From NCBI RefSeq assembly GCF_054482595.1, contig NZ_CM137008.1: DNA of 64,000 nt. The stretch is one strand, 5' to 3'. Positions within the stretch are counted from its first letter, which is position 1. Each line of letters begins with the position of its first letter. The notes beneath the pieces are model-generated. The model saw only the letters and a program-made list of their open reading frames with translations, was not told the DNA's origin and did not search any database. Of the stretch, positions 5,535 through 63,700 are shown one piece after another. The position numbers and the translations under genes were made by a program.

Positions 5535-7385
5535 ATGGCAACAATAATCCCAACAATCAGTAGCTGCAACGATAAAATTACTGCCGGAGAGAAAAGGCTG
5601 GCAAGAATTCTGGAAAGAGGACTAGGCGAAGAGTGCTGCTGTTGGTATGACATTCCCACGGGTGATAAGCATCTTCACCCAGATTTTATGATACTTTCGC
5701 CAGAAAAAGGCATTATTTTTCTCGAGGTAAAAGATTGGTTTATTACAAAAATAAAAAAAGCCAACAAGTCTAATGTTTTGTATGAGACACAAAATGGCAT
5801 TCAATCTTTAAAGAATCCGATAGAACAAGTTAGGCGATATGCTTTCGAAGCTGTAAACCAGTTAAAAAAAGACCCCCTATTGTGCCAACAGGAAGATCGT
5901 TACAATGGCAATCTTCTTTTCCCCTATGGATATGGCGTCTACTTTAGTAATATTACACGAGAAGCATTAAATAATAAATTTACTCAAGAAGAGCTGCTCG
6001 GGATCTTCCCATCAGATCTTATCATCTGCAAAGACGAACTAAATGAATTCATGTCAAAAGGGGATGTTTCATCCAAAATACATTCGTTGATTAAATATGA
6101 CTTCAAATGTCATGCTACACAAGAACAGTTGAACAGGATTAGATGGCACTTATACCCCGATGTCAGAATAGAAAGGGAAAAGAGAAGTAAAAACTGTGAT
6201 GAATTTAGTGTCGATGCACCAACCATCATTTCTATCCTGGATACTCAACAGGAACAACTTGCCAGAAGTATGAGAGACGGCCACCGAATAATTCATGGTG
6301 TTGCAGGTTCAGGTAAGACATTGATCCTCTATCATCGCTGTCAGGAATTAGCGAAAAAAAATGACAGCGAAAAGCCAATACTTGTCATTTGCTACAATAT
6401 TACTTTAGCCAAAAAACTTCGGTCGATGTTCATCAATCATCCCTTTGAAGAGAAAATAAAGGTTAATAATTTTCATGCTTGGTGTTTCCAACAAATTAAA
6501 AAAAACAAGATCACCATTCCAGAAGGGGATAATATTTTTGAAAATATGGAGCAAGCGTTGACTGATGGTTTCAACACAGGAAAAATAAAACCAGAACAAT
6601 ACAGCGCTGTATTAATTGATGAAGGACATGATTTTAAGCCCGAATGGTTAAAAATCCTGGCAAAAATGACTGACTCTCAGGACGAGAATTTGCTATTTCT
6701 TTATGATGATGCTCAGTCAATTTATCAAAAAAAGAAAGCATTAGACTTTACACTGTCCAGCGTGGATATTAAAGCGACAGGACGCACAACTATTCTTAAT
6801 ATAAATTATAGAAACACACAACAAATTCTACACTTTGCCAGTTGCATTGCATTTAATTATCTTAATAGCCATATCGATAGTTCTTTAACCTATCATAAAC
6901 CTGCTGCGGGAGGAATGAATGGCGATTATCCCAAGCTTGAACATTTCGACACACAGGACGAAGAAATAGCAAGAGCAGTCAAATGGATTACAGAGCAAAA
7001 TGAACAAGGGATTCCGTGGTCTGAAATTGCTATACTTAGTCCTTCAACTCACATCCTTTCTAACTCTCTAAGTTCTGTACTTGAATCGAAAAATATCCCC
7101 TTTAATCTTATTGTAAGCTCTGCAGATAAAAAGTCCTGGACGCCAGAACAAGAGCGTATTTCTGTTATGCCATTACCCAGCAGCAAAGGACTTGAGTTTC
7201 ACTCAGTTGTCATTATTGATGCAGCGAGAACACGGGATAATAGTGATGATTTGAGTGAGGATATAAAGAGACTCTATGTAGGTTTTACCCGAGCACGTTG
7301 CAATCTCTTGGTAACCTTGCACGGTGAAGGTGCGTTAAATGAGCATCTACTAAGAACCTATAAGCAAAGCCCACAATATATGTAA
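5535..7385 (+). CDS. NERD-domain / SF1 (UvrD-like) helicase fusion protein, 616 aa; candidate single-gene nuclease-helicase defence protein
   Basis: N-terminal NERD-like motif (GEKRLARILERGL ... HPDFMILSPEKGIIFLEVKDW). Helicase motifs: Walker A HGVAGSGKT, motif II VLIDEGHDF, KGLEFHSVVI, and C-terminal LYVGFTRAR. The gene is strongly AT-rich. Confidence 0.7.
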   Translation: MATIIPTISSCNDKITAGEKRLARILERGLGEECCCWYDIPTGDKHLHPDFMILSPEKGIIFLEVKDWFITKIKKANKSNVLYETQNGIQSLKNPIEQVRRYAFEAVNQLKKDPLLCQQEDRYNGNLLFPYGYGVYFSNITREALNNKFTQEELLGIFPSDLIICKDELNEFMSKGDVSSKIHSLIKYDFKCHATQEQLNRIRWHLYPDVRIEREKRSKNCDEFSVDAPTIISILDTQQEQLARSMRDGHRIIHGVAGSGKTLILYHRCQELAKKNDSEKPILVICYNITLAKKLRSMFINHPFEEKIKVNNFHAWCFQQIKKNKITIPEGDNIFENMEQALTDGFNTGKIKPEQYSAVLIDEGHDFKPEWLKILAKMTDSQDENLLFLYDDAQSIYQKKKALDFTLSSVDIKATGRTTILNINYRNTQQILHFASCIAFNYLNSHIDSSLTYHKPAAGGMNGDYPKLEHFDTQDEEIARAVKWITEQNEQGIPWSEIAILSPSTHILSNSLSSVLESKNIPFNLIVSSADKKSWTPEQERISVMPLPSSKGLEFHSVVIIDAARTRDNSDDLSEDIKRLYVGFTRARCNLLVTLHGEGALNEHLLRTYKQSPQYM

Positions 7386-7403: not shown

Positions 7404-7437
7404 ATAACGCCCGGTAACGCTGTACCGGGCGTTATGA
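7404..7437 (+). terminator. Perfect 14-bp inverted repeat hairpin downstream of the NERD-helicase gene
   Basis: cataacgcccggta-acgctg-taccgggcgttatg read directly; no strong T-run follows. Confidence 0.4.
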
Positions 7438-7626
7438 ATGCATATCTAAGATATTAGTCACGCATGATAGCCGCCACCAAAAACACCATCATCTCCCTCG
7501 CCTCTTTGCGGTGATAAAAGCGTACCATTTTGCTGTTAAATTCCAGCGTTTTAGCCGCTGGAATTAACAAGATCAAACTTCCGGCAACGAAGATTCAGTT
7601 ATTACAAATAATTACTGGAAAAAGAG

Positions 7627-7824
7627 ATGAAAAGCGTGGTTGACAACACATCGAAATATCCTGACTGGAGTAAACGCGATGATATTAAAGCGAAACTGAA
7701 AGTTGAACTTATTCTGCTTCTACACAAGCATAAGTTCCCGCCAGTAGCGAATGATGATGTTTATATGGGTGTGCTGGCACAGGTAGAGAATTTTAAAGAA
7801 CATCATATGAGTGCTTTAAATTAA
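7627..7824 (+). pseudogene. 65-aa ORF, possible C-terminal remnant of a displaced restriction-system gene (hypothesis only)
   Basis: Short ORF upstream of symE in the position occupied by hsd genes in K-12. The motif KRDDIKAKLKVELILLLHKHKFPPV resembles my recollection of type I HsdR C-terminal tails. Unverified. Confidence 0.25.
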
Positions 7825-7943
7825 TCATGAAGGCTGGATACACTTTGTTATCCGGCCATTGTGAATTAATGTTAATTTTTCTTCCAAATCTTTCCAATAA
7901 CGCTTTTATTATTTTCTATTTTTAGCTGGACTTTCCCTGTATT

Positions 7944-7963
7944 TACTGATGATATATCCAGAT
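7944..7963 (+). promoter_or_regulatory. LexA (SOS) box-like CTG-N10-CAG element upstream of symE
   Basis: TACTGATGATATATCCAGAT read directly about 78 bp upstream of the symE ATG; symE is a known SOS-induced gene. Confidence 0.5.
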
Positions 7964-7984
7964 ATTTAGCGCGGTGCGGATGTG

Positions 7985-8065
7985 CGCCAACACACCCGCA
8001 CCGCTCATCACAATCACTATTTTCAAGGAATAGCAGTTATGACTGACACGCATTCTATTGCACAA
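7985..8065 (-). ncRNA. symR: Expected position of SymR antisense sRNA (type I antitoxin) overlapping the symE 5' end; approximate coordinates
   Basis: Placed from the known symE/SymR arrangement, not from detected promoter or terminator signals. A 9-bp inverted repeat GCGGTGCGG/CCGCACCGC lies at 7971-8004. Confidence 0.3.
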
Positions 8066-8380
8066 CCGTTCGAAGCAGAAGTCTCCCCGGCAAATAACCG
8101 TCAATTAACCGTGAGTTATGCGAGCCGCTACCCGGATTGCAGCCGTATTCCCGCCATCACCCTGAAAGGTCAGTGGCTGGAAGCCGCCGGTTTTGCCACC
8201 GGCACAGCGGTAGATGTCAAAGTGATGGAAGGCTGTATTGTCCTCACAGCCCAACCACCCGCCGCCGAAGAGAGCGAACTGATGCAGTCGCTGCGCCAGG
8301 TGTGCAAGCTGTCGGCGCGTAAACAAAAGCAGATACAGGAATTTATTGGGGTGATTGCGGGTAAACAAAAAGTTGCCTGA
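8039..8380 (+). CDS. symE: SOS-induced toxin SymE (type I toxin-antitoxin), 113 aa
   Basis: Internal ATG at 8039 of ORF 7982-8380 gives [33 protein letters not shown]..., matching SymE. Confidence 0.85.
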
Positions 8381-8388
8381 TACATTGA

Positions 8389-8419
8389 CCCGGTAGCACC
8401 AGTGCTACCGGGTATTATT
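8389..8419 (+). terminator. Hairpin plus T-rich tail between convergent symE and the GmrSD-like gene
   Basis: cccggtagca-ccag-tgctaccggg followed by tattatt, read directly. Confidence 0.5.
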
Positions 8420-8426
8420 CGCCGCG

Positions 8427-10520
8427 TTATACCAACGCGCTCTCCATCTGTTTTTCAAATGCCTGACGAATTAATCCCATAATGTAAGGAAGTTGTGCGA
8501 GGTCGCTGAAACAAATTTCCACATCACCATTGCCCCATCGCCCAACATTTGTCACATCTTTGGCAATACCTTTCGGATCGACCAGTTCATGAAACTGCAT
8601 ATTAAGCGACAATCGCAGTCGGCTTTTTTGCGGCACAACATCAACAAAATTCGTTTCAGCTTTAAACGCAATATATAGCTTCAATACTTCCTGCGTGATC
8701 CCTGCGTCCAGGCGCATAACTTCATCGCGAAGATGATCGAATAACACCCGGCTATGCGAACCATCAGCAAGAAAAGGATAATCACTCAGGCTGTAACTGG
8801 TTTTGTTTTCAGGCTGCCCCCGATAAACAGCTAAAACCTCTTCAGAAAGAGAAGGCGCTTGCCAGACCTGAATCGCGAGATCGGCCAGACGATCGGCTCG
8901 GGCGTGAATGGCGGCTTCATCCCATTTTTCGCACTGTCCAAGACCGATATTCAAATAGAGCGGGCTATGCTTAAAGCCGTCTTCAATATCGCGTTTTTCC
9001 GCGAAAGGTCTGTCACTGTAGCGGGAGTTATAGCGCGTTAATGTGAGATTCCCCAACGTATGCAACAGTTCTTTATGAATGCGTTGCCAGTCACTTCCCA
9101 GCTCTTCACGCCATTTAGCCGACAAATTTTCGTTCTGCGGCATAATATGCTCAATCGTAAACTCTTCCACGCGCTCTCTGCGTTTATCGTTTTCCAGTCG
9201 TCGTAACCAGTAGCTGCGACTACGGAAGTTATAGAGATCGCGAACTTTTAATTCCCGTTTAAATTCATCATCGTTGGGGAAACGACGATATGAAGGTAGA
9301 TTCAAAAAATGTACCTGAATACTTTCCAGATAATTTTCTTTATTAATAACTTTATAAAAAGTGGCAAATGTCTTGTTCAAAGAATTTGTCGGAATTGCAC
9401 ATACTGCACGGCGGAAAACATAAGATTCAATTAAACGAATTATGCTCAGAAAATCTTCGTGAGACAAAACGCCATTTTTATAGTCATGATAAAGCGCCAG
9501 TAAGAAAGGATACGCCACATCGACCTTTAACTCGCGCAAATCCTGAAAAGCCGTAGCAAGCGATTTGTCACTTTCTTTTCCCAATGCCATTGCACAGTAA
9601 TACTCCGCGTAGATATGAATATCTTCAACCAGCCGATCTACGCCTTTTTCAGCAACACTCTGGCTGCGGGCATGGAGTTTAAATGCCTCATAGACTTCAT
9701 CTGTCCGAGGGATCTCCCCCGTTTTTACCGTCAGATAATGACGCATAAAACTGTCAAAATATTCGCTGTAACCTTGCTGACCAAAGGCGACTTCCATTGG
9801 ACGCCAGTGATCTTCATACAATCGGGTTTGATGCTCTGGTTCGAGGCCCATCAGAATAAAATTGCGCACCAGATCGGCCTGACTTAACGCCTTACCGGTG
9901 GAGTTCATACTTTCAAAAATCAGTTGCGGATTATCCTGACCACGATTAAGCGCCACATCGACAATTAATAACTTTGCTAACCCACGACATAAGGGGATCA
10001 AGTCATCACCGAGTTTGGCAATTTGTTCATCAAAGAAAGTAAAGTTTTCCATTATTCGATGGGAATAGTTTTCTGGCATTGGTCTTTGTTTTATTAACGC
10101 CAGTAAACTGTCTTTATCAGTCTCGGTCAGCAGTAATTTAAAACCTTTCTCGCCGGACTCATAAGGATTGAGCAAATAATAATTACGCAATTTCATTGCC
10201 GAAAAGCCATCAAAAACTTCGTCTTCGCCAAGATGGCGCGATAAAGCCTCAATCAGCAACATTGCGGTCGTCAGCCGCTGCTGACCATCAATGACCAGCA
10301 ACGGAGAAATACCAGAAACCTGATACAATCCCTGCTCTATATAAACAACCGAACCGATAAAATGCGCTGATATATCGTCACGCTTTCCTGCACGAATGAT
10401 GTCGTCCCAAAGTTGCCGACATTGTTGTTCTGTCCATGAATAAGTCCGTTGATAAATGGGAATAACAAACTGCTGCGAACGTTTTAAAAAATCGAGTAAG
10501 CGAGCTTCTGTAGCTTTCAT
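8427..10520 (-). CDS. DUF262 + DUF1524 (GmrSD-family) putative Type IV modification-dependent restriction endonuclease, 697 aa
   Basis: N-terminal DUF262/ParB-like motifs IPIYQRTYSW and VIDGQQRLTT. C-terminal His-Me finger/DUF1524-like motifs FTIEHIMPQ, GNLTL and YNS. Confidence 0.7.
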   Translation of the reverse strand: MKATEARLLDFLKRSQQFVIPIYQRTYSWTEQQCRQLWDDIIRAGKRDDISAHFIGSVVYIEQGLYQVSGISPLLVIDGQQRLTTAMLLIEALSRHLGEDEVFDGFSAMKLRNYYLLNPYESGEKGFKLLLTETDKDSLLALIKQRPMPENYSHRIMENFTFFDEQIAKLGDDLIPLCRGLAKLLIVDVALNRGQDNPQLIFESMNSTGKALSQADLVRNFILMGLEPEHQTRLYEDHWRPMEVAFGQQGYSEYFDSFMRHYLTVKTGEIPRTDEVYEAFKLHARSQSVAEKGVDRLVEDIHIYAEYYCAMALGKESDKSLATAFQDLRELKVDVAYPFLLALYHDYKNGVLSHEDFLSIIRLIESYVFRRAVCAIPTNSLNKTFATFYKVINKENYLESIQVHFLNLPSYRRFPNDDEFKRELKVRDLYNFRSRSYWLRRLENDKRRERVEEFTIEHIMPQNENLSAKWREELGSDWQRIHKELLHTLGNLTLTRYNSRYSDRPFAEKRDIEDGFKHSPLYLNIGLGQCEKWDEAAIHARADRLADLAIQVWQAPSLSEEVLAVYRGQPENKTSYSLSDYPFLADGSHSRVLFDHLRDEVMRLDAGITQEVLKLYIAFKAETNFVDVVPQKSRLRLSLNMQFHELVDPKGIAKDVTNVGRWGNGDVEICFSDLAQLPYIMGLIRQAFEKQMESALV

Positions 10521-10781: not shown

Positions 10782-10957
10782 CTGCTGCCTCCTCATCTTT
10801 CAGAGGCTTCATCATCCGTCTTCTGGCAGTTCACAATACAGATGCAAATATTAGTTTTATTTAACATACAGACAGGTTAAAACAGCATCTGCATCCGGTT
10901 TTTTAGCCTCATCTGTACCGGTTTTTCTTTCTGTATGGTCCAAATAAGGAATACAGC

Positions 10958-53470: not shown

Positions 53471-54577
53471 ATGAATAAAACAATAACGGCGCTTGCTATC
53501 ATGATGGCTTCATTTGCCGCAAACGCGTCTGTATTACCGGAAACTCCTGTGCCATTTAAAAGTGGTACCGGAGCAATTGATAACGACACTGTCTACATTG
53601 GTTTAGGTAGCGCAGGTACGGCATGGTACAAGCTGGATACACAGGCCAAAGATAAAAAATGGACAGCGTTAGCTGCATTCCCTGGTGGACCAAGAGATCA
53701 AGCAACCTCTGCATTTATTGATGGCAATCTGTATGTGTTTGGCGGCATTGGCAAAAACAGCGAGGGCTTGACTCAGGTATTTAATGACGTACACAAATAC
53801 AACCCCAAAACCAATAGCTGGGTTAAATTGATGTCGCACGCGCCGATGGGCATGGCGGGCCATGTGACTTTTGTACACAACGGCAAGGCTTATGTTACTG
53901 GCGGTGTTAACCAGAATATCTTCAATGGCTATTTTGAAGATCTCAACGAAACTGGAAAAGATTCAACCGCTATAGATAAAATCAATGCCTACTATTTTGA
54001 CAAAAAAGCAGAAGATTATTTCTTCAATAAGTTTCTGTTGTCTTTTGATCCCTCAACACAGCAATGGAGTTACGCTGGCGAATCGCCCTGGTACGGAACG
54101 GCTGGTGCGGCGGTTGTGAATAAAGGTGATAAAACCTGGCTTATTAATGGCGAAGCCAAACCCGGATTGCGAACGGATGCCGTATTTGAACTTGATTTCA
54201 CCGGTAATAATTTAAAATGGAATAAGCTTGCTCCCGTCTCATCACCAGATGGCGTCGCTGGCGGTTTTGCGGGGATAAGCAATGATTCTCTTATATTTGC
54301 CGGAGGGGCCGGATTCAAAGGTTCACGAGAAAATTACCAGAACGGTAAGAACTATGCGCATGAAGGCCTGAAAAAATCATATAGCACTGATATTCATCTT
54401 TGGCATAACGGGAAATGGGATAAATCTGGTGAATTATCGCAAGGTCGGGCCTACGGAGTATCATTGCCCTGGAATAATAGTCTATTGATTATTGGCGGTG
54501 AATCTGCAGGCGGCAAAGCGGTGACGGATTCAGTTTTGATCTCTGTGAAGGATAATAAAGTTACAGTACAAAACTAA
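53471..54577 (+). CDS. nanM: N-acetylneuraminate mutarotase NanM (Kelch-repeat beta-propeller), 368 aa
   Basis: Translation from the internal ATG at 53471 (AGGAGA SD): MNKTITALAIMMASFAANASV... Confidence 0.85.
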   Translation: MNKTITALAIMMASFAANASVLPETPVPFKSGTGAIDNDTVYIGLGSAGTAWYKLDTQAKDKKWTALAAFPGGPRDQATSAFIDGNLYVFGGIGKNSEGLTQVFNDVHKYNPKTNSWVKLMSHAPMGMAGHVTFVHNGKAYVTGGVNQNIFNGYFEDLNETGKDSTAIDKINAYYFDKKAEDYFFNKFLLSFDPSTQQWSYAGESPWYGTAGAAVVNKGDKTWLINGEAKPGLRTDAVFELDFTGNNLKWNKLAPVSSPDGVAGGFAGISNDSLIFAGGAGFKGSRENYQNGKNYAHEGLKKSYSTDIHLWHNGKWDKSGELSQGRAYGVSLPWNNSLLIIGGESAGGKAVTDSVLISVKDNKVTVQN

Positions 54578-54640
54578 CGCTTCAGGGCCCCAGTAAAGGG
54601 CCCTGCTATCAATTTATCATTTCAATTACGCGAAAATTAT

Positions 54641-55621
54641 ATGGACGCAATAATATCGCCCGATTATTACTATGTTCTTACCGTTGCTGGTCAGTCTAAT
54701 GCCATGGCGTATGGCGAAGGACTGCCATTACCGGACAGGGAAGATGCGCCTCATCCCAGAATTAAACAATTAGCGAGATTTGCGCATACGCATCCCGGAG
54801 GCCCGTCATGTCACTTTAACGACATTATTCCACTGACTCACTGCCCACACGATGTTCAGGATATGCAGGGTTATCACCATCCTCTGGCAACGAATCATCA
54901 AACACAGTACGGCACCATTGGCCAGGCACTGCATATTGCACGGAAATTACTGCCCTTTATTCCTGATAACGCAGGGGTTCTCATCGTTCCATGTTGCCGT
55001 GGCGGATCGGCTTTTACCGCGGGCAGCGAGGGGACATATTCAGAACGGCACGGAGCCAGCCATGATGCTTGTCGTTGGGGAACGGATACTCCGCTATACC
55101 AGGATTTAGTCAGCAGAACGCGAGCCGCATTGGCAAAAAATCCGCAGAACAAATTCCTCGGCGTATGCTGGATGCAAGGCGAATTTGACTTAATGACCAG
55201 TGACTACGCGTCACACCCTCAACACTTTAATCATATGGTTGAAGCCTTTCGTAGGGATCTAAAACAATACCATTCTCAGCTTAATAATATTACTGATGCG
55301 CCCTGGTTCTGCGGCGATACCACCTGGTACTGGAAAGAAAATTTCCCTCATGCGTATGAAGCTATTTATGGCAATTATCAAAATAATATTTTAGCTAATA
55401 TTATTTTCGTCGACTTCCAGCAACAAGGTGCAAGAGGACTGACGAACGCGCCTGATGAAGATCCGGACGATTTAAGCACGGGATATTACGGTTCAGCGTA
55501 CCGGTCACCGGAGAACTGGACGACGGCACTGCGAAGCAGTCATTTCAGCGCGGCAGCCCGTCGGGGGATTATTTCTGACAAGTTTGTAGAAGCAATTTTG
55601 CAGTTTTGGCGCGAAAGGTGA
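54641..55621 (+). CDS. nanS: 9-O-acetyl-N-acetylneuraminate esterase NanS, 326 aa
   Basis: Sequence recognised (YjhS/NanS). Confidence 0.8.
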   Translation: MDAIISPDYYYVLTVAGQSNAMAYGEGLPLPDREDAPHPRIKQLARFAHTHPGGPSCHFNDIIPLTHCPHDVQDMQGYHHPLATNHQTQYGTIGQALHIARKLLPFIPDNAGVLIVPCCRGGSAFTAGSEGTYSERHGASHDACRWGTDTPLYQDLVSRTRAALAKNPQNKFLGVCWMQGEFDLMTSDYASHPQHFNHMVEAFRRDLKQYHSQLNNITDAPWFCGDTTWYWKENFPHAYEAIYGNYQNNILANIIFVDFQQQGARGLTNAPDEDPDDLSTGYYGSAYRSPENWTTALRSSHFSAAARRGIISDKFVEAILQFWRER

Positions 55622-55775
55622 GCGTTCATTAATTTGATTTATTCGCATCCATCAGCGCTTTTAACTCCTCCGGCGTAAACGGTGGTTTGCGTAGGTGCAA
55701 CATCGCATGGCAATTAGGGCACACAGGCAGCAAAAAAACAAATGAGATCAAAGTAATATATCTTCACTTGCAGGC

Positions 55776-56705
55776 TTGAACAGCAGAAAATTTGCGAGCA
55801 TGATCGCAATTATTTCACTGCCAGGGATATCAATGGCTTCCAGTAAATCGCTACAGCAGGCAATTGCCAATATAAAAATCTGGCATAAGGGTGAACAGCG
55901 CGCACCGCATAAACCATTGTTATTGCTATACGTATTAGCGGGATACCTGAATGGACATCCACGCCTTTTCGATTATGGATCGGAAATCTACGAACCTCTG
56001 CACAGTTTACTGGAACGTTTTGGGCCACAGCGTTCACAGTACCGACCTGATATGCCGTTCTGGCGATTACAAGGCGACGGATTCTGGCAATTACACAATG
56101 CCGAGCTTTGCTCAACAGCAGGGAGCAGCCGACAACCGCCAGTGAAGGAACTGAACGAATACCACGTTGCAGGCGGTTTCGATGAACAGCACTACGCCTT
56201 GGTAACCGGCAATAAAAAACTCATCAATACTCTGGCGCAACAGATACTCGAAGCGCACTTCACCGAGAGTATTCAGGAAGAAATTGCTGACGAGCTGGGT
56301 TTTGATCTCCAGCAAATCCGTAAACAGTGCGACCCGTTATTTCGCAAAAATGTATTACGCGCTTATAAATACCAGTGCGCGATATGTGGCTTTAATATGC
56401 GCCACGACGACACCACCGTCGCGCTGGAAGCGGCGCATATAAAATGGAAACAGCACGGCGGTCCTTGTGAAATTCCTAATGGCCTGGCGCTTTGCGCAAT
56501 TCACCATAAAGCCTTTGATAAAGGATCGATTGGCCTGGACGAAAATATGCGGGTACTGGTATCAGATGCGGTAAACGGCGGAGGGATCGTTGAGAGATTA
56601 TTCTGGGATTTTGACGGGAAAACTATTGCGTTGCCGCAGGTGCGTAAAAATTACCCTTATGAGGTGTTTGTAGAGTGGCATCGGAAAGAGGTTTTTAGGG
56701 GGTGA
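55776..56705 (+). CDS. HNH endonuclease with an N-terminal putative modified-DNA reader domain; candidate Type IV restriction enzyme, 309 aa
   Basis: C-terminal HNH motif CAICGF ... LEAAHIKWKQHGGPCEIPNGLALCAIHHKAFDKG. The N-terminal domain (APHKPLLLLYVL ... MPFWRLQGDGFWQL) has no catalytic motif recognised. An alternative start is the ATG at 55833. Confidence 0.6.
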   Translation: MNSRKFASMIAIISLPGISMASSKSLQQAIANIKIWHKGEQRAPHKPLLLLYVLAGYLNGHPRLFDYGSEIYEPLHSLLERFGPQRSQYRPDMPFWRLQGDGFWQLHNAELCSTAGSSRQPPVKELNEYHVAGGFDEQHYALVTGNKKLINTLAQQILEAHFTESIQEEIADELGFDLQQIRKQCDPLFRKNVLRAYKYQCAICGFNMRHDDTTVALEAAHIKWKQHGGPCEIPNGLALCAIHHKAFDKGSIGLDENMRVLVSDAVNGGGIVERLFWDFDGKTIALPQVRKNYPYEVFVEWHRKEVFRG

Positions 56706-57017
56706 GGTAGCCATTATATATCTTTCACCTAGGATTTTAAATGTAATAGATAAAGTATTTTCTGACACCGAAAGTAGTATTTATGAGTACATAGCCACAA
56801 ATCAATTTTAAAATCTCAATATAAAATACGTTTACAAATATTCTAGTCAGAGTAAATATATATTCATTATAAGAGAATCCAATTATTAACCAATCGAAAT
56901 TACAAATTAAAAAACAATTGGCATGTTGAATTGTACACTAATTTATATACATAGTAAATTTACATCTATTCATGATATAATTATCGTGATATCAATTCAT
57001 TAATCAGGAAAATCATA

Positions 57018-57320
57018 ATGGAATTGTTAAATACTTATGATGATAAAGAAACAGCTGAAATATTTTTTGAAAAAATAGACGGAGAGAAAAGATTAGCAAG
57101 TGAGAGAGATGCTACAGAAACAGTCTATAACCTCTTCGGGCAACCAACATGGAAAAACTTTTATCTTCTTGATATGTTTAACCTAAAAGAGTTACAAGGG
57201 ATTATAGAGTGTAGAAAAAATGGACAGCCGTTCGACCAGGAACGACACAGGGAAATAATAAAAATGCTTGAATATGCAGCAAAATCGTTTGACCTAATTA
57301 TTCCTGCACATTGGCGATAA
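57018..57320 (+). CDS. Hypothetical protein, 100 aa, AT-rich, convergent with the Res-like gene
   Basis: ORF-track ORF preceded by aggaaaatcata; no family recognised. Confidence 0.35.
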   Translation: MELLNTYDDKETAEIFFEKIDGEKRLASERDATETVYNLFGQPTWKNFYLLDMFNLKELQGIIECRKNGQPFDQERHREIIKMLEYAAKSFDLIIPAHWR

Positions 57321-57322
57321 TA

Positions 57323-57355
57323 TCTGTTCCATATCTCACAGAGATATGGAACAGA
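57323..57355. terminator. Bidirectional hairpin between the 100-aa ORF and the Res-like gene
   Basis: tctgttccatatctc-acag-agatatggaacaga read directly. Confidence 0.55.
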
Positions 57356-57366
57356 ATCATAATTAT

Positions 57367-60300
57367 TTACTCGCTAACCATCTTACTGAATAACTTCTCC
57401 AGATAAACGGGGCCTGTATCCTCAATAAAAAGCACATTTCTGGCTTCCAGATTTTCTTTTGAGTCAGGTACGTTTACTAAGTCAACATAACAAGTTTCAG
57501 AAACAATAAATGCACTTAATGATAAGTTATCATCCGATAATTTATGTTCAAGATTCTTAATTTCTTTATATAATCCGAACTTCGGATCATCAAGATTAAG
57601 ATTGCGAATGCCTTTTGGATCAATAAGACTTAGCCATTGTTTACCACTTTTATCATCGACTAACCACAATAAGAAATCCGGATAAAAATTACCCGCAGTA
57701 GCAAAGCCCAGGCCTTTATTTTTAGAATCCGCATTTCTTAGCAGATATAAACTTTTATCACCAATAATTTTCTGCCCTTTTGTCGAATCAACAAAAGACT
57801 GAAGATCCTGAACAAAAGTAATCTCGCTTGGCGCACCAAGTGCTGCCGGTCGCATTTTTAGCGGTATATTGGCATTTTTTTCAATCGAAAGAAGCGGGTA
57901 ATAGAGATGTTTATCAAAGGTAATAGCAACCATCCCGGATGCACTCCAGGATTTTGCTTTACCGATTTCGCCGTCGATGACCAATTGTTGTAATTGTTCC
58001 AGCCGACTGGCATAAGCCAACCCATCATCAGTTTCTTCGATCTCGAAATGGTACATTTTGATCATACCAGGATCATCTTCTTTCACCTGCGTGACTTCAT
58101 AAAACTGACCTTCATAAGCATTTTTCAAGGTGTTGTAAAAGCGATCAGTATAATCAGTCAGCAGACGAAGCATAATATCTTCCTGCTTAGCAATATCTGC
58201 ATATTGCTTAATCTCAAGCTCTGAAGCTGGAATCAAAAGGGTATACCAACTATTTCCGATCTTTGTCTTACCGGTACAAAAGTCGATCAAACGTTGTTTA
58301 TCCACACGTAAATTTGACCAGCCGCGTTGTAGTTTATAATTCTGAATGGCGAGATAAAGCCGATCAAAATCAAATGCACTAATGATTTTATAATCTAACT
58401 TCGCTTCATTGCGCACGTTAACCGGAGTATTGTCCCCTTTTCTGCTGGTATCAATCGACTCAAGTTTCGGGTATAAGTCCAGCTTAATATGCGGCTGCTT
58501 AATTTTCCCCTGAAAATCAGCAGGAACTTCATACAATTCAGGAAAATAGACACGTTTAAAGCCGAGTCTTTGATTATCTTTATAACCATCTTTAAGCTTA
58601 AGTGTTTTAAGCCTGGTTGCTGGCATATTTGGCCGAGTTTCAAAATTCAGCTCAAGGATCTCGTCACTTGGCGTAATCCCTTCATCTTCCAGGTATTGTT
58701 TAAAGGTTGCCATGTAATCGGCACGTACACCGAATACATTCAGTGTCTCTAATTTTTCCAGATGCAACCCTTTCGGACGCTCACCGGGTGTACTGCGTTT
58801 CAAAGAATAATTGCGACCTTTAAGGCGTACGCCACGACCAAATAACTGAATGATCTGTGAACCTTCTCCACGGCCCATATTGAGCAATCCCATCGTTGAG
58901 ACGCGCCAACTGCTCCAGCCTTCAGTAAATTTTCGCGAGCCGATCAAAATATGTAGTCGCGAGTCTTTGTCATTTAACGTATGAAAGAGTGACTTTGCAA
59001 AATCATCTCTCTGATAATCAAATGTCGTATCCTCTTCACACATTTTGTAAAGAGACGGTGCATCACCAATATTGATAAGGCCAAACGGTTCGGCCTCACC
59101 AACCTGTAATGCCAGTTCACCTTTACTGCCTATTAAATTCAGAACTCGCAGTCGCTGACCAGAGTGAGTGGTGTTAAACAAGCGAGAAAGAATATCTGCG
59201 TAGATATCTTCCGGAGCGTTCATTAGTGCAGTAAAGCGATTTTCAAAAATGTTACGCTCTTTGGTATCGAGGATTCGCGCTTTATTTTTAATGAGATCGT
59301 TAATCCACGCTTTTGCCTGCGTTTCGTGGTTTAAAAACCATGCTAAAAAACGCAATACTGCGTGAATGTCTGAATCTTCACCACTTACCGTATTACCGAC
59401 AAAAACCCACAGCGGTTTTTCGATATTAAATTCACTTAATTTTTCTTTATTCTTATTGAATAAATATTGTTGCTGATAAAAGCTGAGCAAACACGCGGTA
59501 AAATACTCATACCGACGCTCATCTTTTTTATCCTCTTCAGGATTAAGGTTAAGAATCAGTGATTCTTTACCATAACCATCCTCATAGAAGAATTTATAGG
59601 AGTAATCGAACAGAATCGATTTTCCATAGACCTCTCGCGTCGCCTGAATACGCGCATCTCGTTTTTCTTCGCTGGTTAATGCTATTTGCGCTAACTCTTC
59701 TTCGTTCAGTTTACCTAAGGCCGTTGTTTCAAAAAGCAGCTTTGCTTTTTTCTTCTGAATTTCTGTTTCAACTGCCTCAACATTATTGCCACCGGCTACT
59801 GCCTGGCCAAAAGTTGCTGAATATTCAAACGCAAATCCGTCACGTGTTAATTTGTCACGACGGCGCATCCAGGCACCAGCAGCACTTCCGGTGCCTTTAT
59901 GCCCTTCATCAATCAGAACCAGATTGTTGCCTTCAAATGCCTCAACGGCAACAGTTTTGTCACCCATTTCATCGGCAAGTTTATTGATATCAATAACTTC
60001 AATCGTGCCTTTGAAGGGCGCAGATTTACTCTTATCGAATAACTGGTATTGGGTAAATCCTGAGTTTTCCAGCTCATCTAAATGTTGCTTCGACAGGCGT
60101 TCATCCGGAGTAAGCAGGATGATTTTGTCGGGGTAATGGTGGGTATTACCGTTCTGGAAATAATGTAAGTATTGCAAAATATTGACATGCAATAGCAGTG
60201 TCTTACCAGAACCAGTAGCATTCCAGTATGCCAGTTTATTCAAATCATCCAGAATATATGATTTGAACTGATTAGCCCGGTCTTTTGCTGTTTTATCATT

Positions 60301-60747
60301 TTCAGCATTGTATGCTGCCAGCTCGTTATTTAGCCCATCGAGTAATTGCTGTTTACGATTGAAGTACCAGTCCAGGTAGATCTCGGTAAACAAAAGCGAC
60401 AAGTACTGAAAATATTTCATGTTCAGCACAGTGTCTTCTTTGCGATTACGGTGCTCAGTTATCTGCTGCCAGTGCTGCACGATATTGAGATCGTAACGAC
60501 GCAGTTCATCGAGATCGATAAGATCGACCTCGAATAAATAGTTACTCAGCTCATGGAAGAACAAACTTTGGCCATCCTCATGGATGCCTTCAAAGCGATC
60601 TTCACCTAACCGATTCTTCAGACCTTGCAATGTGCCATCTTTAAAAAAATGGAACATAAAGCGGTTCAAAACCAGTTGCTTATGAAAGCTCAGTTTGCTG
60701 TTTGTCTCTTTTTTAACAGCTTTACCGGTGGTCGGTTTTTTAGCCAT
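57367..60747 (-). CDS. Type III restriction Res-like subunit: SF2 helicase core with C-terminal PD-(D/E)XK nuclease motif, 1126 aa
   Basis: Motif I WNATGSGKT, motif II VLIDEGHKG, motif III SATFG, motif VI QLFGRGVRL; C-terminal YPDFLLWLVDD ... LIDPKG (PD ... DxK). Strong GGAGGAGG SD; start lies 2 nt after the Mod-like stop. Confidence 0.75.
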   Translation of the reverse strand: MAKKPTTGKAVKKETNSKLSFHKQLVLNRFMFHFFKDGTLQGLKNRLGEDRFEGIHEDGQSLFFHELSNYLFEVDLIDLDELRRYDLNIVQHWQQITEHRNRKEDTVLNMKYFQYLSLLFTEIYLDWYFNRKQQLLDGLNNELAAYNAENDKTAKDRANQFKSYILDDLNKLAYWNATGSGKTLLLHVNILQYLHYFQNGNTHHYPDKIILLTPDERLSKQHLDELENSGFTQYQLFDKSKSAPFKGTIEVIDINKLADEMGDKTVAVEAFEGNNLVLIDEGHKGTGSAAGAWMRRRDKLTRDGFAFEYSATFGQAVAGGNNVEAVETEIQKKKAKLLFETTALGKLNEEELAQIALTSEEKRDARIQATREVYGKSILFDYSYKFFYEDGYGKESLILNLNPEEDKKDERRYEYFTACLLSFYQQQYLFNKNKEKLSEFNIEKPLWVFVGNTVSGEDSDIHAVLRFLAWFLNHETQAKAWINDLIKNKARILDTKERNIFENRFTALMNAPEDIYADILSRLFNTTHSGQRLRVLNLIGSKGELALQVGEAEPFGLINIGDAPSLYKMCEEDTTFDYQRDDFAKSLFHTLNDKDSRLHILIGSRKFTEGWSSWRVSTMGLLNMGRGEGSQIIQLFGRGVRLKGRNYSLKRSTPGERPKGLHLEKLETLNVFGVRADYMATFKQYLEDEGITPSDEILELNFETRPNMPATRLKTLKLKDGYKDNQRLGFKRVYFPELYEVPADFQGKIKQPHIKLDLYPKLESIDTSRKGDNTPVNVRNEAKLDYKIISAFDFDRLYLAIQNYKLQRGWSNLRVDKQRLIDFCTGKTKIGNSWYTLLIPASELEIKQYADIAKQEDIMLRLLTDYTDRFYNTLKNAYEGQFYEVTQVKEDDPGMIKMYHFEIEETDDGLAYASRLEQLQQLVIDGEIGKAKSWSASGMVAITFDKHLYYPLLSIEKNANIPLKMRPAALGAPSEITFVQDLQSFVDSTKGQKIIGDKSLYLLRNADSKNKGLGFATAGNFYPDFLLWLVDDKSGKQWLSLIDPKGIRNLNLDDPKFGLYKEIKNLEHKLSDDNLSLSAFIVSETCYVDLVNVPDSKENLEARNVLFIEDTGPVYLEKLFSKMVSE

Positions 60748-60749
60748 TC

Positions 60750-63700
60750 TTAAACCTCCTCCGCAAACATCAGGTTCAAGAATTCAGGTTCGATCTGGCG
60801 GATTTTCAGGCTACGAACAATCTCGCCGTCTTCTTCATCAACGGTAAAGGCGGTAGGCAAGTTATGATCGCCATTGATATAGATAACGTCATACGTGTTT
60901 TCTTTTGCATACAAATCAAATCGGTTAGCATATTTATTCAATTCTTCATAACCGATCTTGTCGCAATCGCGCCACAGAATAAGGGTACGCTCGCCTGTTG
61001 GCAGCGTACCTTCAACACGCACATAGCCACGTTCGATATTGGATTCGATGGATTTCACATGTAATCCAATGAGATAGTTGAAAGTTTCAACTAAATCGAT
61101 GTTTTTACGCTCAGTGGCACCGGCGGAATCCGTCGCAATATCCATTTCGTAGTTAAATGGTTTTTTGAAATTATCGATTCCGAGAAAAGAATCTTTACTC
61201 TCATTTTTAATGAGATAATTTAATAGATAATCATTCCTCACATCTGAAGGCAATGTTTCGAAAAGATCTATGGGAGATTTTTTCAGTACTATATTATTTA
61301 AGCAATCTTCATAGCTTTCTAGTTTAATTGTTTTAAGAATATGTGATATACCGTTTTTATCCTGTGGATAACCTTTATTCCACTTATCGCTATAAACGGC
61401 TTTTACAATTCTAGCTTTTATAACTGAATCAGAATGTTCTCCCATTTCAACTAATATATATTTATGATCTTCAGATTTTTCTCTATTTCTATTAATAACA
61501 GCATGTGCGGTGGTTCCACTGCCGCCAAAAAGATCGACTATGGTTTCATTATTAGCACTATGCCATACTGAATCAATAACGCGTTCCATAGTACCTAAGG
61601 ATTTTGGATAAGAAAACAAACCTGCAGAGCCAAACATGGACGTTAATAAATTTGTGCCACCTATGGTAGCATTATATTGTGATCCTTGCCAAATACTAGG
61701 AAGCAGTAACCTTCTTGCGCTATCATGATATAATCTGTTTATGACAAATTTGTTTGAACTTACCAATTCACCTACTTCAATTGCTTTTTTAGCCCCTTCA
61801 TAAGAAAGCGACCAAACTCTTTCTTCCCCATTCTCACCAATGGGATAGACTCTTTTTAAACCTTCTTTGGTTTCACCTACCGGATAATTACCTTTTTCTA
61901 AAGGAACAGGTGGTGGTTCGACTCCTTTAACTTCAAATGTATCAGGGTCAACCAAAACTGCAAAAAAGCTTTCTGGACGACCAGGATTACCAATCCTAAA
62001 ATTATTATCTCCGGTACCAGCTCTTCTAAAACCTCTAGTTCGAATTCCATCCTCCACACTATCCCCTTTGAGAATATCCATTCCTTCTGGTATAGAAAAC
62101 AGACAATATTCATGTGTTCTCGAAACATTTGTTCTACCTGTCCCAGACCCAGGATAGTGCTCAACGATACATTGTAAAACCTCTCTTTCTGGATTGATAC
62201 TTTTTTCCAATTCTTTTAAAAGAGACATTTCTGTATCATCAATAGCATAACAAAAAACACCGTTATTATTTAATAGTTTTTTAGATAAAATGATTCTATC
62301 AGCCATTAATGTAGCCCATGAAGAATCCTTATATCCATTTTTATATAAGATAGGAGTTGCATCAGTATTATATGGTGGATCAAGATATATTATGCTTGTA
62401 CTTTTATCAAACTTAGTCTCAAGGATTTTTAGGGCTTGATAATTTTCAGAGTTGACCAATAGCCCATTAATCTCATTATCAATATTATCAATTGATCGAA
62501 TCAGTTCACATTTAAATTTAGAATCAAAAAAAGTAGTATCAACCATCAGATATGGTGAACTCTTGAGAAATTTCATATCCCGAGAGTTATGCTGTTGAAA
62601 TAGACCTAGCGTACTCCAATGTTTAAATTGTTTATCATTTACTAATATAGTTTGATAAAGAGCATCTGGAATTCTATCTAAAGTAATACAGTATTCCGTA
62701 GAAACAACAAACTTCTTCTTAGTCCAAAGTTTTTTCTGGAAATTCTCAATTTGTGCCAAAAATGTAATGAGTTCCAGTGCAACAGTACGCAAACATTGAA
62801 TCATGCGCAATTGTTTCTCAATATTGGCAAACACTTCTGCATTTTGCACATTATCGAGATTCATTACTTCATTTTTAATATAAAAATCCAGTTCGTTCGT
62901 TAAAAAACCACCGAGATCTTTATGGATAAAGTAGTCTGCTGTATTACGCTGGGTATAAGTTGTAAGGTGACGCTCCAACTCTGTACGTGACGGATTTTTT
63001 TCTGTTGGCGCACGTTTAGCAAGATCAACCCAATGCTGTTGAACTGTTTTATCTGCCAGAATTGTTGAAATAGCGGACTGTACTAAAGCATCCTGCTTAG
63101 TGCCCTTTTTCATTGCCTTATATTCGAAGTGAATAACTAACTCTTCTGTTTCAACGAGTTTACCGTCCACCACAGATGAGTTTTTCACCACTTCTACTGG
63201 CTTATATTCTTGTTCATACTCATCACCTTCTTCATCAATTTTGGTACGAACATGTGGCTCAATAAGTACAAAGCAGCGATCTAATTCATTATCCTTACGG
63301 TTATCTTTTGCTGTGTCCGCTGCGAGCAATTTAAAGCTAACTTTACGACCATCATCTAATTTAAATGAATAATTAGCAAAGTTTTCGCCACTTTTAATGT
63401 AGTACTGGTCCTTATTTGCCCAGTGCAACATCACTTCTTCGCCAGAATAAGGGATGGCGTAGGTATTACCTTTATAACGGCGTTTGCTGATAAAATCGCC
63501 GTTGTCATAATAACGAGAAAAGAAAGTGAGCAGATGGGAAAATACTGCATTTTCATGCTCATTTGCTCCGGATGCCATAGCCGCCAGTTGCTTTTTAAGC
63601 TCCTGTACTTTCGGGCTATCAGCAGGGTCCACACCCGCATCAGTTGCCGCTTTTATTGTCAGTTGCAACTGATGTTCTAATTCTGATTTATTGGCATTTC

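Follow-up and report, generated by a model that had tools for sequence, protein, structure and literature searches.

Does a type I toxin-antitoxin module retain its controls when the restriction genes around it are exchanged? The question is raised by a symE gene within the 64-kb stretch of DNA analysed here (hereafter the window), for which a preliminary description, made from the letters alone, had proposed a LexA-type box upstream of the toxin gene, an antisense RNA, SymR, across its start, and persistence of the module amid altered restriction neighbours. The natural reference is the symE-symR locus of Escherichia coli K-12 (yjiW-ryjC; Kawano, Aravind and Storz 2007, PMC1891008), in which operator, leader, SymR, -10 element and open reading frame (ORF) are ordered and spaced as in the window; the two share 92.5-93% DNA identity over 469 common bases and an identical symR -10 element and 5' end. 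Judged on its sequence, the segment at 7944-8380 almost certainly represents the canonical type I toxin-antitoxin locus symE-symR of E. coli, with its SOS operator. For every sequence element of this symER locus, we document below that it is present and intact, where it lies and how far it is conserved.

The LexA-type operator and the predicted symE promoter

The 20-mer TACTGATGATATATCCAGAT at 7944-7963 (no strand assigned) is predicted by its sequence to be a LexA (SOS) operator, with CTG at 7946-7948 and CAG at 7959-7961, and ends 75 nt before the symE start codon at 8039. The LexA-type box claimed earlier, CTG-N10-CAG at 7946-7961, proved to be the positional counterpart of a box with published SOS control: the K-12 operator, TACTGATGATATATACAGGT, aligns with the window operator base for base with two differences, SOS control of K-12 symE (yjiW) has been reported (PMC1891008, Kawano 2007; PMC6590174), and the symE promoter is described as overlapping the LexA site (PMC3874152).

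The bare motif occurs 16 times in the 64-kb window against 11.2 expected, and 16 or more copies were reached in 7 of 100 shuffles. These counts would fit a reading in which the CTG-N10-CAG upstream of symE is a chance match devoid of LexA function, and in which the palindrome at 7971-8004, which can fold on either strand, is a structure of the symE leader and does not belong to an antisense RNA. Since the enrichment of the bare motif is not significant, the case for an operator rests on homology, on the extended motif and on cross-species conservation. The extended AT-rich form, TACTGWWNWWWWWWNCAGNW, is present in a single copy in the window, as compared to 0.22 expected.

For the cross-species comparison, 38 loci from about 15 genera were collected from one-genome-per-species contigs with a sequence pattern that did not include the operator; 37 of them were evaluable for the operator. 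In 34 of these 37 loci of other enterobacterial species, CTG-N10-CAG precedes the ATG by 93-99 nt, and both CTG and CAG are invariant in ten out of ten E. coli loci with different neighbours. Across species the spacer falls into clearly distinct types (for example TACTGGTTAGATTTACAGGT) with CTG-N10-CAG kept. A motif that stays at a fixed distance from the start codon in many genera while flanks and spacer vary, and that corresponds to a published SOS box, argues against a chance match. The three loci without the exact motif (L014, L017 and L046; Pantoea, Kosakonia) each differ from it by one base in one arm: CAG reads TAG in L014, and L017 and L046 have TTG in place of CTG. The symE ORF of L014 is also cut to 42 aa.

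We also scored all 20-mers of the 64 kb by heterology index (HI), using a matrix compiled from LexA boxes known from the literature, which is approximate and knowledge-based and does not represent a database result. By this approximate measure the window operator had the best HI of all, at ~10.6, as compared to 8.4 for K-12 symE and 2.0-11.7 for validated boxes. For the K-12 symE box, the literature gives an HI of 7.9 (PMC11228462).

The symE promoter region can be tentatively assigned to 7942-7969 on the plus strand, where a loose hexamer scan returned two candidates, both overlapped by the operator. Candidate A, suggested by the hexamer scan together with the conserved TATTTAGCG, is an extended -10 element, TGaTATATC, at 7950-7958; candidate B combines a putative -35 element, TTTACT (7942-7947), with a putative -10 element, TATTTA (7964-7969). 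A literature search for a mapped symE transcription start found none, and the promoter hexamers are thus predictions.

Of the two bases that distinguish the window operator from that of K-12, the A-to-C change at 7958 corresponds to the E. coli majority allele, while the G-to-A change at 7962 is lineage-specific. Position 7962 is A in the window (CAGAT) versus G (CAGGT) in nine out of nine other E. coli loci; in other-species operators, CAG is followed by GT in 30 of 34 cases and by GG in two, hence by G in 32 of 34. The exact 66-nt allele is rare, being found in 21 of 5426 complete E. coli genomes. On the approximate matrix, G7962A accounts for a rise in HI of ~1.5, from ~9.1 for the majority allele, so that LexA repression may be somewhat weaker. 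The same change turns GGTATT at 7961-7966 into the more -10-like GATATT, which matches the -10 consensus at four of six positions, including the key A2 and T6. These features are what would be expected if the operator were functionally weakened in this lineage, with lower LexA affinity and higher basal symE transcription, leaving SymR and Lon as the main brake. We consider such weakening improbable, as the CTG and CAG cores, their spacing and the AT-rich spacer are all intact, the HI still lies below that of the weakest accepted box (11.7, on the same approximate matrix), a search for a -35 element to match GATATT found none, and symE is intact in the lineage, giving no sign of toxic deregulation. 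The other-strand half-site of the window operator, ATCTG, also occurs in the validated uvrD box, which likewise counts against a weakened operator. G7962A is the sole unusual detail of an otherwise standard operator and locus, and a minor one; the rare CAGAT allele nonetheless offers a natural variant for work on LexA operator strength.

SymR and its promoter

The antisense RNA was located by a full-length match to Rfam family RF01809 (model positions 1-77 of 77; 91.7 bits versus a gathering score of 61; E = 1.2e-17) with the consensus structure kept, which puts symR, encoding the predicted 77-nt antitoxin RNA, at 7968-8044 on the minus strand. RF01809 was the sole Rfam family to reach its threshold in the 64-kb window. 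Matches to the speF leader at 7480-7563 (17.1 bits versus 37) and to the sR41 snoRNA at 10787-10819 (18.5 bits versus 54) were rejected as chance matches.

The 5' end of SymR, at 8044, coincides with base 6 of the symE ORF, and its first bases, AGUCAU, are the complement of symE codons 1-2. From there the RNA spans the start codon (8039-8041), the Shine-Dalgarno sequence AAGGA (8025-8029, plus strand; read from the sequence, 9 nt before the ATG) and the leader, in agreement with the earlier expectation of a minus-strand RNA overlapping the symE start. Its complementarity to the symE mRNA is complete across the 5' leader, the Shine-Dalgarno sequence, the start codon and codon 2. Encoded in cis, SymR keeps this complementarity automatically, including at the six loop positions at which it differs from K-12.

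SymR is predicted to fold into two hairpins with a free energy of -39.3 kcal/mol (z = -6.1), as compared to -37.8 kcal/mol for K-12 SymR. Hairpin 1 (8007-8043, minus strand), whose pairs are kept in 97-98% of alignment cells, has a loop, CCUUGAA, that is complementary to the Shine-Dalgarno region of symE and lies opposite AAGGA. Hairpin 2 (7971-8004, minus strand) is a 15-bp, G+C-rich 3' hairpin. Eight of the 77 bases differ from K-12 SymR: six belong to the hairpin 1 loop, one leaves the terminal pair of that hairpin open, and one, in hairpin 2, turns a K-12 A/C mismatch into a G-C pair.

Hairpin 2 has an unusual variant in E. coli p11A (locus L006, 2669-2745), in which the tip GTGCGCCAACAC, corresponding to about 7985-7990 of the window, is replaced by its exact reverse complement, GTGTTGGCGCAC (plus strand). 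With the stem kept and the loop flipped, this looks like a quasipalindrome template-switch inversion. The same flipped tip is seen in Enterobacter sp. Bisph1 (L012).

In K-12, a CATTCT-to-CACTCC change inside the symE ORF abolishes SymR (PMC1891008). The symR -10 element of the window, TAGAAT (8057..8052, minus strand; CATTCT on the plus strand, 8051-8056), is identical to the K-12 element defined by that mutation, and window and K-12 show zero differences across 8028-8103, a segment that includes both the start codon and the -10 element. Alignment with K-12 symR, which the preliminary description had suggested as a check, hence revealed no divergence that would abolish the promoter or terminator; the terminal hairpin is in fact better by one base pair. 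Across species, the -10 hexamer reads TAGAAT in 19 loci and TACAAT in 17. The probable -35 element, TTCTGC (8080..8075, minus strand), is the best available at a 17-nt spacer and a poor match to the consensus; the divergent JMF1 allele keeps TTCTG with a changed spacer.

Scanning 7600-8600 for consensus promoters and terminators returned neither a symR promoter nor a symR terminator. As K-12 has the same non-consensus elements, we did not take the blank scan as evidence of absence. The earlier reading had failed to recognize either element with confidence; the -10 element and the 3' hairpin could be placed through the Rfam match and the K-12 alignment. The difficulty arises from the poor -35 element (TTCTGC) and from the lack of a U-run after the hairpin, both of which apply to K-12 as well. 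Hairpin 2 is followed by GCU and then by AAAUAUCUGG, with no U-run and with the same architecture in K-12; a 3' end of this kind is a property of the family, and not a divergence of the window strain.

Structural conservation bears on which strand is selected. Among ten E. coli SymR sequences, 98.1% of alignment cells pair and six pairs show compensatory changes. Among the 38 cross-species sequences, 97.3% of cells pair and ten pairs (64 cells) have changed on both sides, with the observed values reached in none of 500 shuffles; when the partners are shifted by 1-3 columns, pairing in these 38 sequences falls to 25-52%. The collecting pattern fixed CAT, CTATT, AATAG, GA, TGA and AGCG, so that the invariance of helix 1 arises partly by construction. 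It left helix 2 unconstrained, and there 9 of 15 pairs covary through compensatory changes. Columns 2-38 and 6-34 form G-U pairs in all 38 sequences, as do columns 56-61 in 31 of 38. On the plus strand these would be A-C mismatches, implying that the selected structure belongs to the minus-strand RNA and not to a symE leader. The K-12 RNA, moreover, has been detected, and its loss upon -10 mutation (PMC1891008) likewise speaks against a mere leader palindrome. Together with the conserved position of the LexA motif, this leaves a combination of chance motif and leader structure extremely improbable, and we retain the assignment of 7968-8044 to SymR.

symE in a variable immigration control region

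The symE coding sequence (8039-8380, plus strand) is intact, encoding 113 aa in an uninterrupted ORF whose product matches Pfam SymE_toxin (PF08845) with 74.8 bits against a cut-off of 29; identical DNA is annotated as symE in RefSeq. The protein shares 107 of 113 residues with K-12 SymE, the changes from window to K-12 being Q22H, L23V, S26G, C34Y, I99V and E101A. Residue 34, Cys in the window versus Tyr in K-12, falls within the conserved domain. A PADLOC search with SymE gave no match, SymE not being among its defence proteins.

An intact gene in one strain could still be part of a decaying relic, in which symE or its control is nonfunctional and the locus is kept merely by sitting between recombining defence cassettes. 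Several observations would fit. In E. coli O22:H8 RM10809-3 (L007, 2634-2974), which otherwise has the closest regulatory region, with two mismatches across 7919-8205, symE is frameshifted, and this frameshifted allele shares Y34C with the window. In E. coli LST200A (L003, 3001-3185, equivalent to 7908-8072 of the window), an IS1 at the equivalent of 8072/8073 removes symE past codon 11 along with the symR -35 region, leaving the LexA box, SymR and its -10 element as an orphan antitoxin remnant; the downstream genes up to an Rpn gene are deleted. symE is shortened in several other-species loci, and its DNA is matched in 2872 of 5426 complete E. coli genomes, about half being without a match. 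In the window, however, the ORF, Shine-Dalgarno sequence, operator, SymR hairpins and -10 element are all intact, 32 of 37 other-species loci hold a symE ORF of at least 95 aa, and the compensatory changes in SymR indicate continuing selection. We therefore regard decay as very unlikely and treat symER as an intact module.

The neighbourhood of this module is variable. The locus lies between yjiA and yjiS/yjiR, within the immigration control region (ICR); over 17,420 bases the window matches E. coli XH990 (NZ_CP019359.1) with 100.000% identity. In K-12 the order is hsdR-hsdM-hsdS-symE-mcrB-mcrC, with hsdS upstream and mcrBC downstream of symE. Upstream of symE in the window, by contrast, a 616-aa NERD+UvrD helicase (5535-7385, plus strand; PADLOC candidate defence family "NERD+UvrD", 469 bits) occupies the place that hsdMS and most of hsdR take in other strains, followed by a C-terminal hsdR remnant of 70 codons (7614-7824, plus strand), at which homology to intact hsdR starts abruptly at 7614. 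Downstream, an uninterrupted ORF on the minus strand (8427-10520) encodes a 697-aa GmrSD-type enzyme with GmrSD_N, GmrSD_C and DUF5655 domains. The earlier suggestion that the toxin-antitoxin module persisted while its restriction neighbours changed was thus confirmed: helicase, hsdR remnant and GmrSD replace hsdRMS and mcrBC.

Some annotations of these neighbours deserve comment. RefSeq names the NERD+UvrD helicase a 3'-5' exonuclease. RefSeq/PGAP splits the GmrSD ORF of the identical XH990 DNA into a CDS of 387 aa and an N-terminal fragment labelled 'pseudogene', apparently an artefact of annotation; the annotation of O157 strain 9000 has two separate CDS for this gene. Just past the stop codon of the helicase gene, at about 7406-7437, lies a strong G+C-rich inverted repeat, AACGCCCGGTAACGCTGTACCGGGCGTT, which could be a terminator or a REP-like element. 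A second defence cluster is found at about 54,000-64,000 (L011, 37,000-47,676), beyond the fim and nan genes, and comprises genes for a restriction endonuclease that binds phosphorothioated DNA, an HNH remnant, a DEAD/DEAH helicase of 1126 aa, a DNA methyltransferase of 1039 aa and a protein related to SNF2; the cluster could represent a DISARM-like or other multi-gene system.

Cassette-like variability of the ICR (hotspot 36), including replacement of mcrBC by GmrSD homologues as in the window, and symE-symR as its resident toxin-antitoxin pair have been published (PMC12707154; PMC4437046; PMC1891008). Relative to the published region, the window haplotype has lost hsdMS and most of hsdR and carries the NERD+UvrD helicase. 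The haplotype is rare, its 621-nt query being matched at ≥99% identity in 18 of 5426 genomes. Homology between haplotypes ends on the left near 7908/7909 and on the right at 8356, at 8376 or further out, and the blastn boundaries delimit a conserved symER core at 7909-8356 (no strand assigned) that is common to all E. coli ICR haplotypes examined. Only symER stays constant across at least five neighbour arrangements: that of the window (NERD helicase/hsdR remnant-symER-GmrSD) and, in other E. coli, hsdS-symER-mcrBC, hsdS-symER-GmrSD, hsdR-symER-yjiS and the IS1-truncated form. Within symER the window hardly differs from the O22:H8 allele across 7919-8205 and diverges from it beyond; a recombination crossover inside symER was considered, but the mismatches form a mosaic from which no clean parent pair emerges.

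It is conceivable, and in our estimation doubtful, that symER is more than a passenger and is functionally coupled to the defence island, that its 448-bp core serves as a homology anchor for cassette exchange, or that G7962A retunes its SOS control. If coupling did apply, SOS-induced SymE, which is reported to condense the nucleoid, might respond to chromosome damage inflicted by neighbouring restriction enzymes, for example when specificity changes or methylation is lost.

The symER circuit in the light of K-12

Extrapolating from K-12 experiments by homology, we would expect LexA to bind, SymR to be expressed and to repress translation, Lon to exert its control and SymE to be toxic in this strain as well. 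LexA bound to the operator at 7944-7963, overlapping the symE promoter, would keep symE off until DNA damage triggers LexA self-cleavage. From the promoter inside the symE ORF (-10 at 8057..8052), constitutive transcription would yield a stable, 77-nt SymR (8044..7968) with two hairpins, whose pairing with the symE leader, Shine-Dalgarno sequence and start codon would block translation and modestly lower the mRNA level. SymE made nonetheless would be degraded by Lon, and overproduced SymE would be toxic.

Each of these steps has its precedent in K-12. There, SymR is stable, present in roughly 10-fold excess and acts chiefly by repressing translation, independently of RNase III, its effect being 7-fold on protein and about 3-fold on mRNA; Lon degrades SymE, and the controls by LexA, SymR and Lon are additive (PMC1891008; PMC4147584). 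As to the toxin itself, one source (PMC11894785) recounts that its toxicity was first ascribed to RNA cleavage, SymE having been proposed as an endoribonuclease, that this biochemical activity is disputed, and that a later study observed no RNA cleavage by SymE and instead attributed nucleoid compaction to its non-specific DNA binding.

The arrangement resembles tisB/istR-1 and dinQ/agrB, which likewise combine a LexA-repressed toxin promoter with a constitutive small RNA that blocks toxin translation (PMC4147584). In those two systems, however, the antitoxin RNA is divergent or encoded nearby and pairs over a short stretch, whereas the RNA of symER is strictly antisense to the 5' end of its target; and while the toxins of tisB/istR-1 and dinQ/agrB are small membrane peptides, SymE has 113 aa and an AbrB/MazE-like fold.

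The symE/symR/LexA circuit of the window is therefore already known: it is intact, its elements are in their usual places, and nothing about it is new. The circuit was characterized in 2007, SymR has its curated Rfam family, and the literature reviews how the island varies around its resident symER; the locus accordingly has little discovery value. Its practical value lies in annotation. No symR RNA feature is present in the RefSeq/PGAP record of XH990 (NZ_CP019359.1), which holds identical DNA, or in the K-12 record (NZ_CP132594.1), yet the exact position of SymR can be given, 7968-8044 on the minus strand, and symR illustrates why scans for consensus promoters and terminators miss such an RNA.
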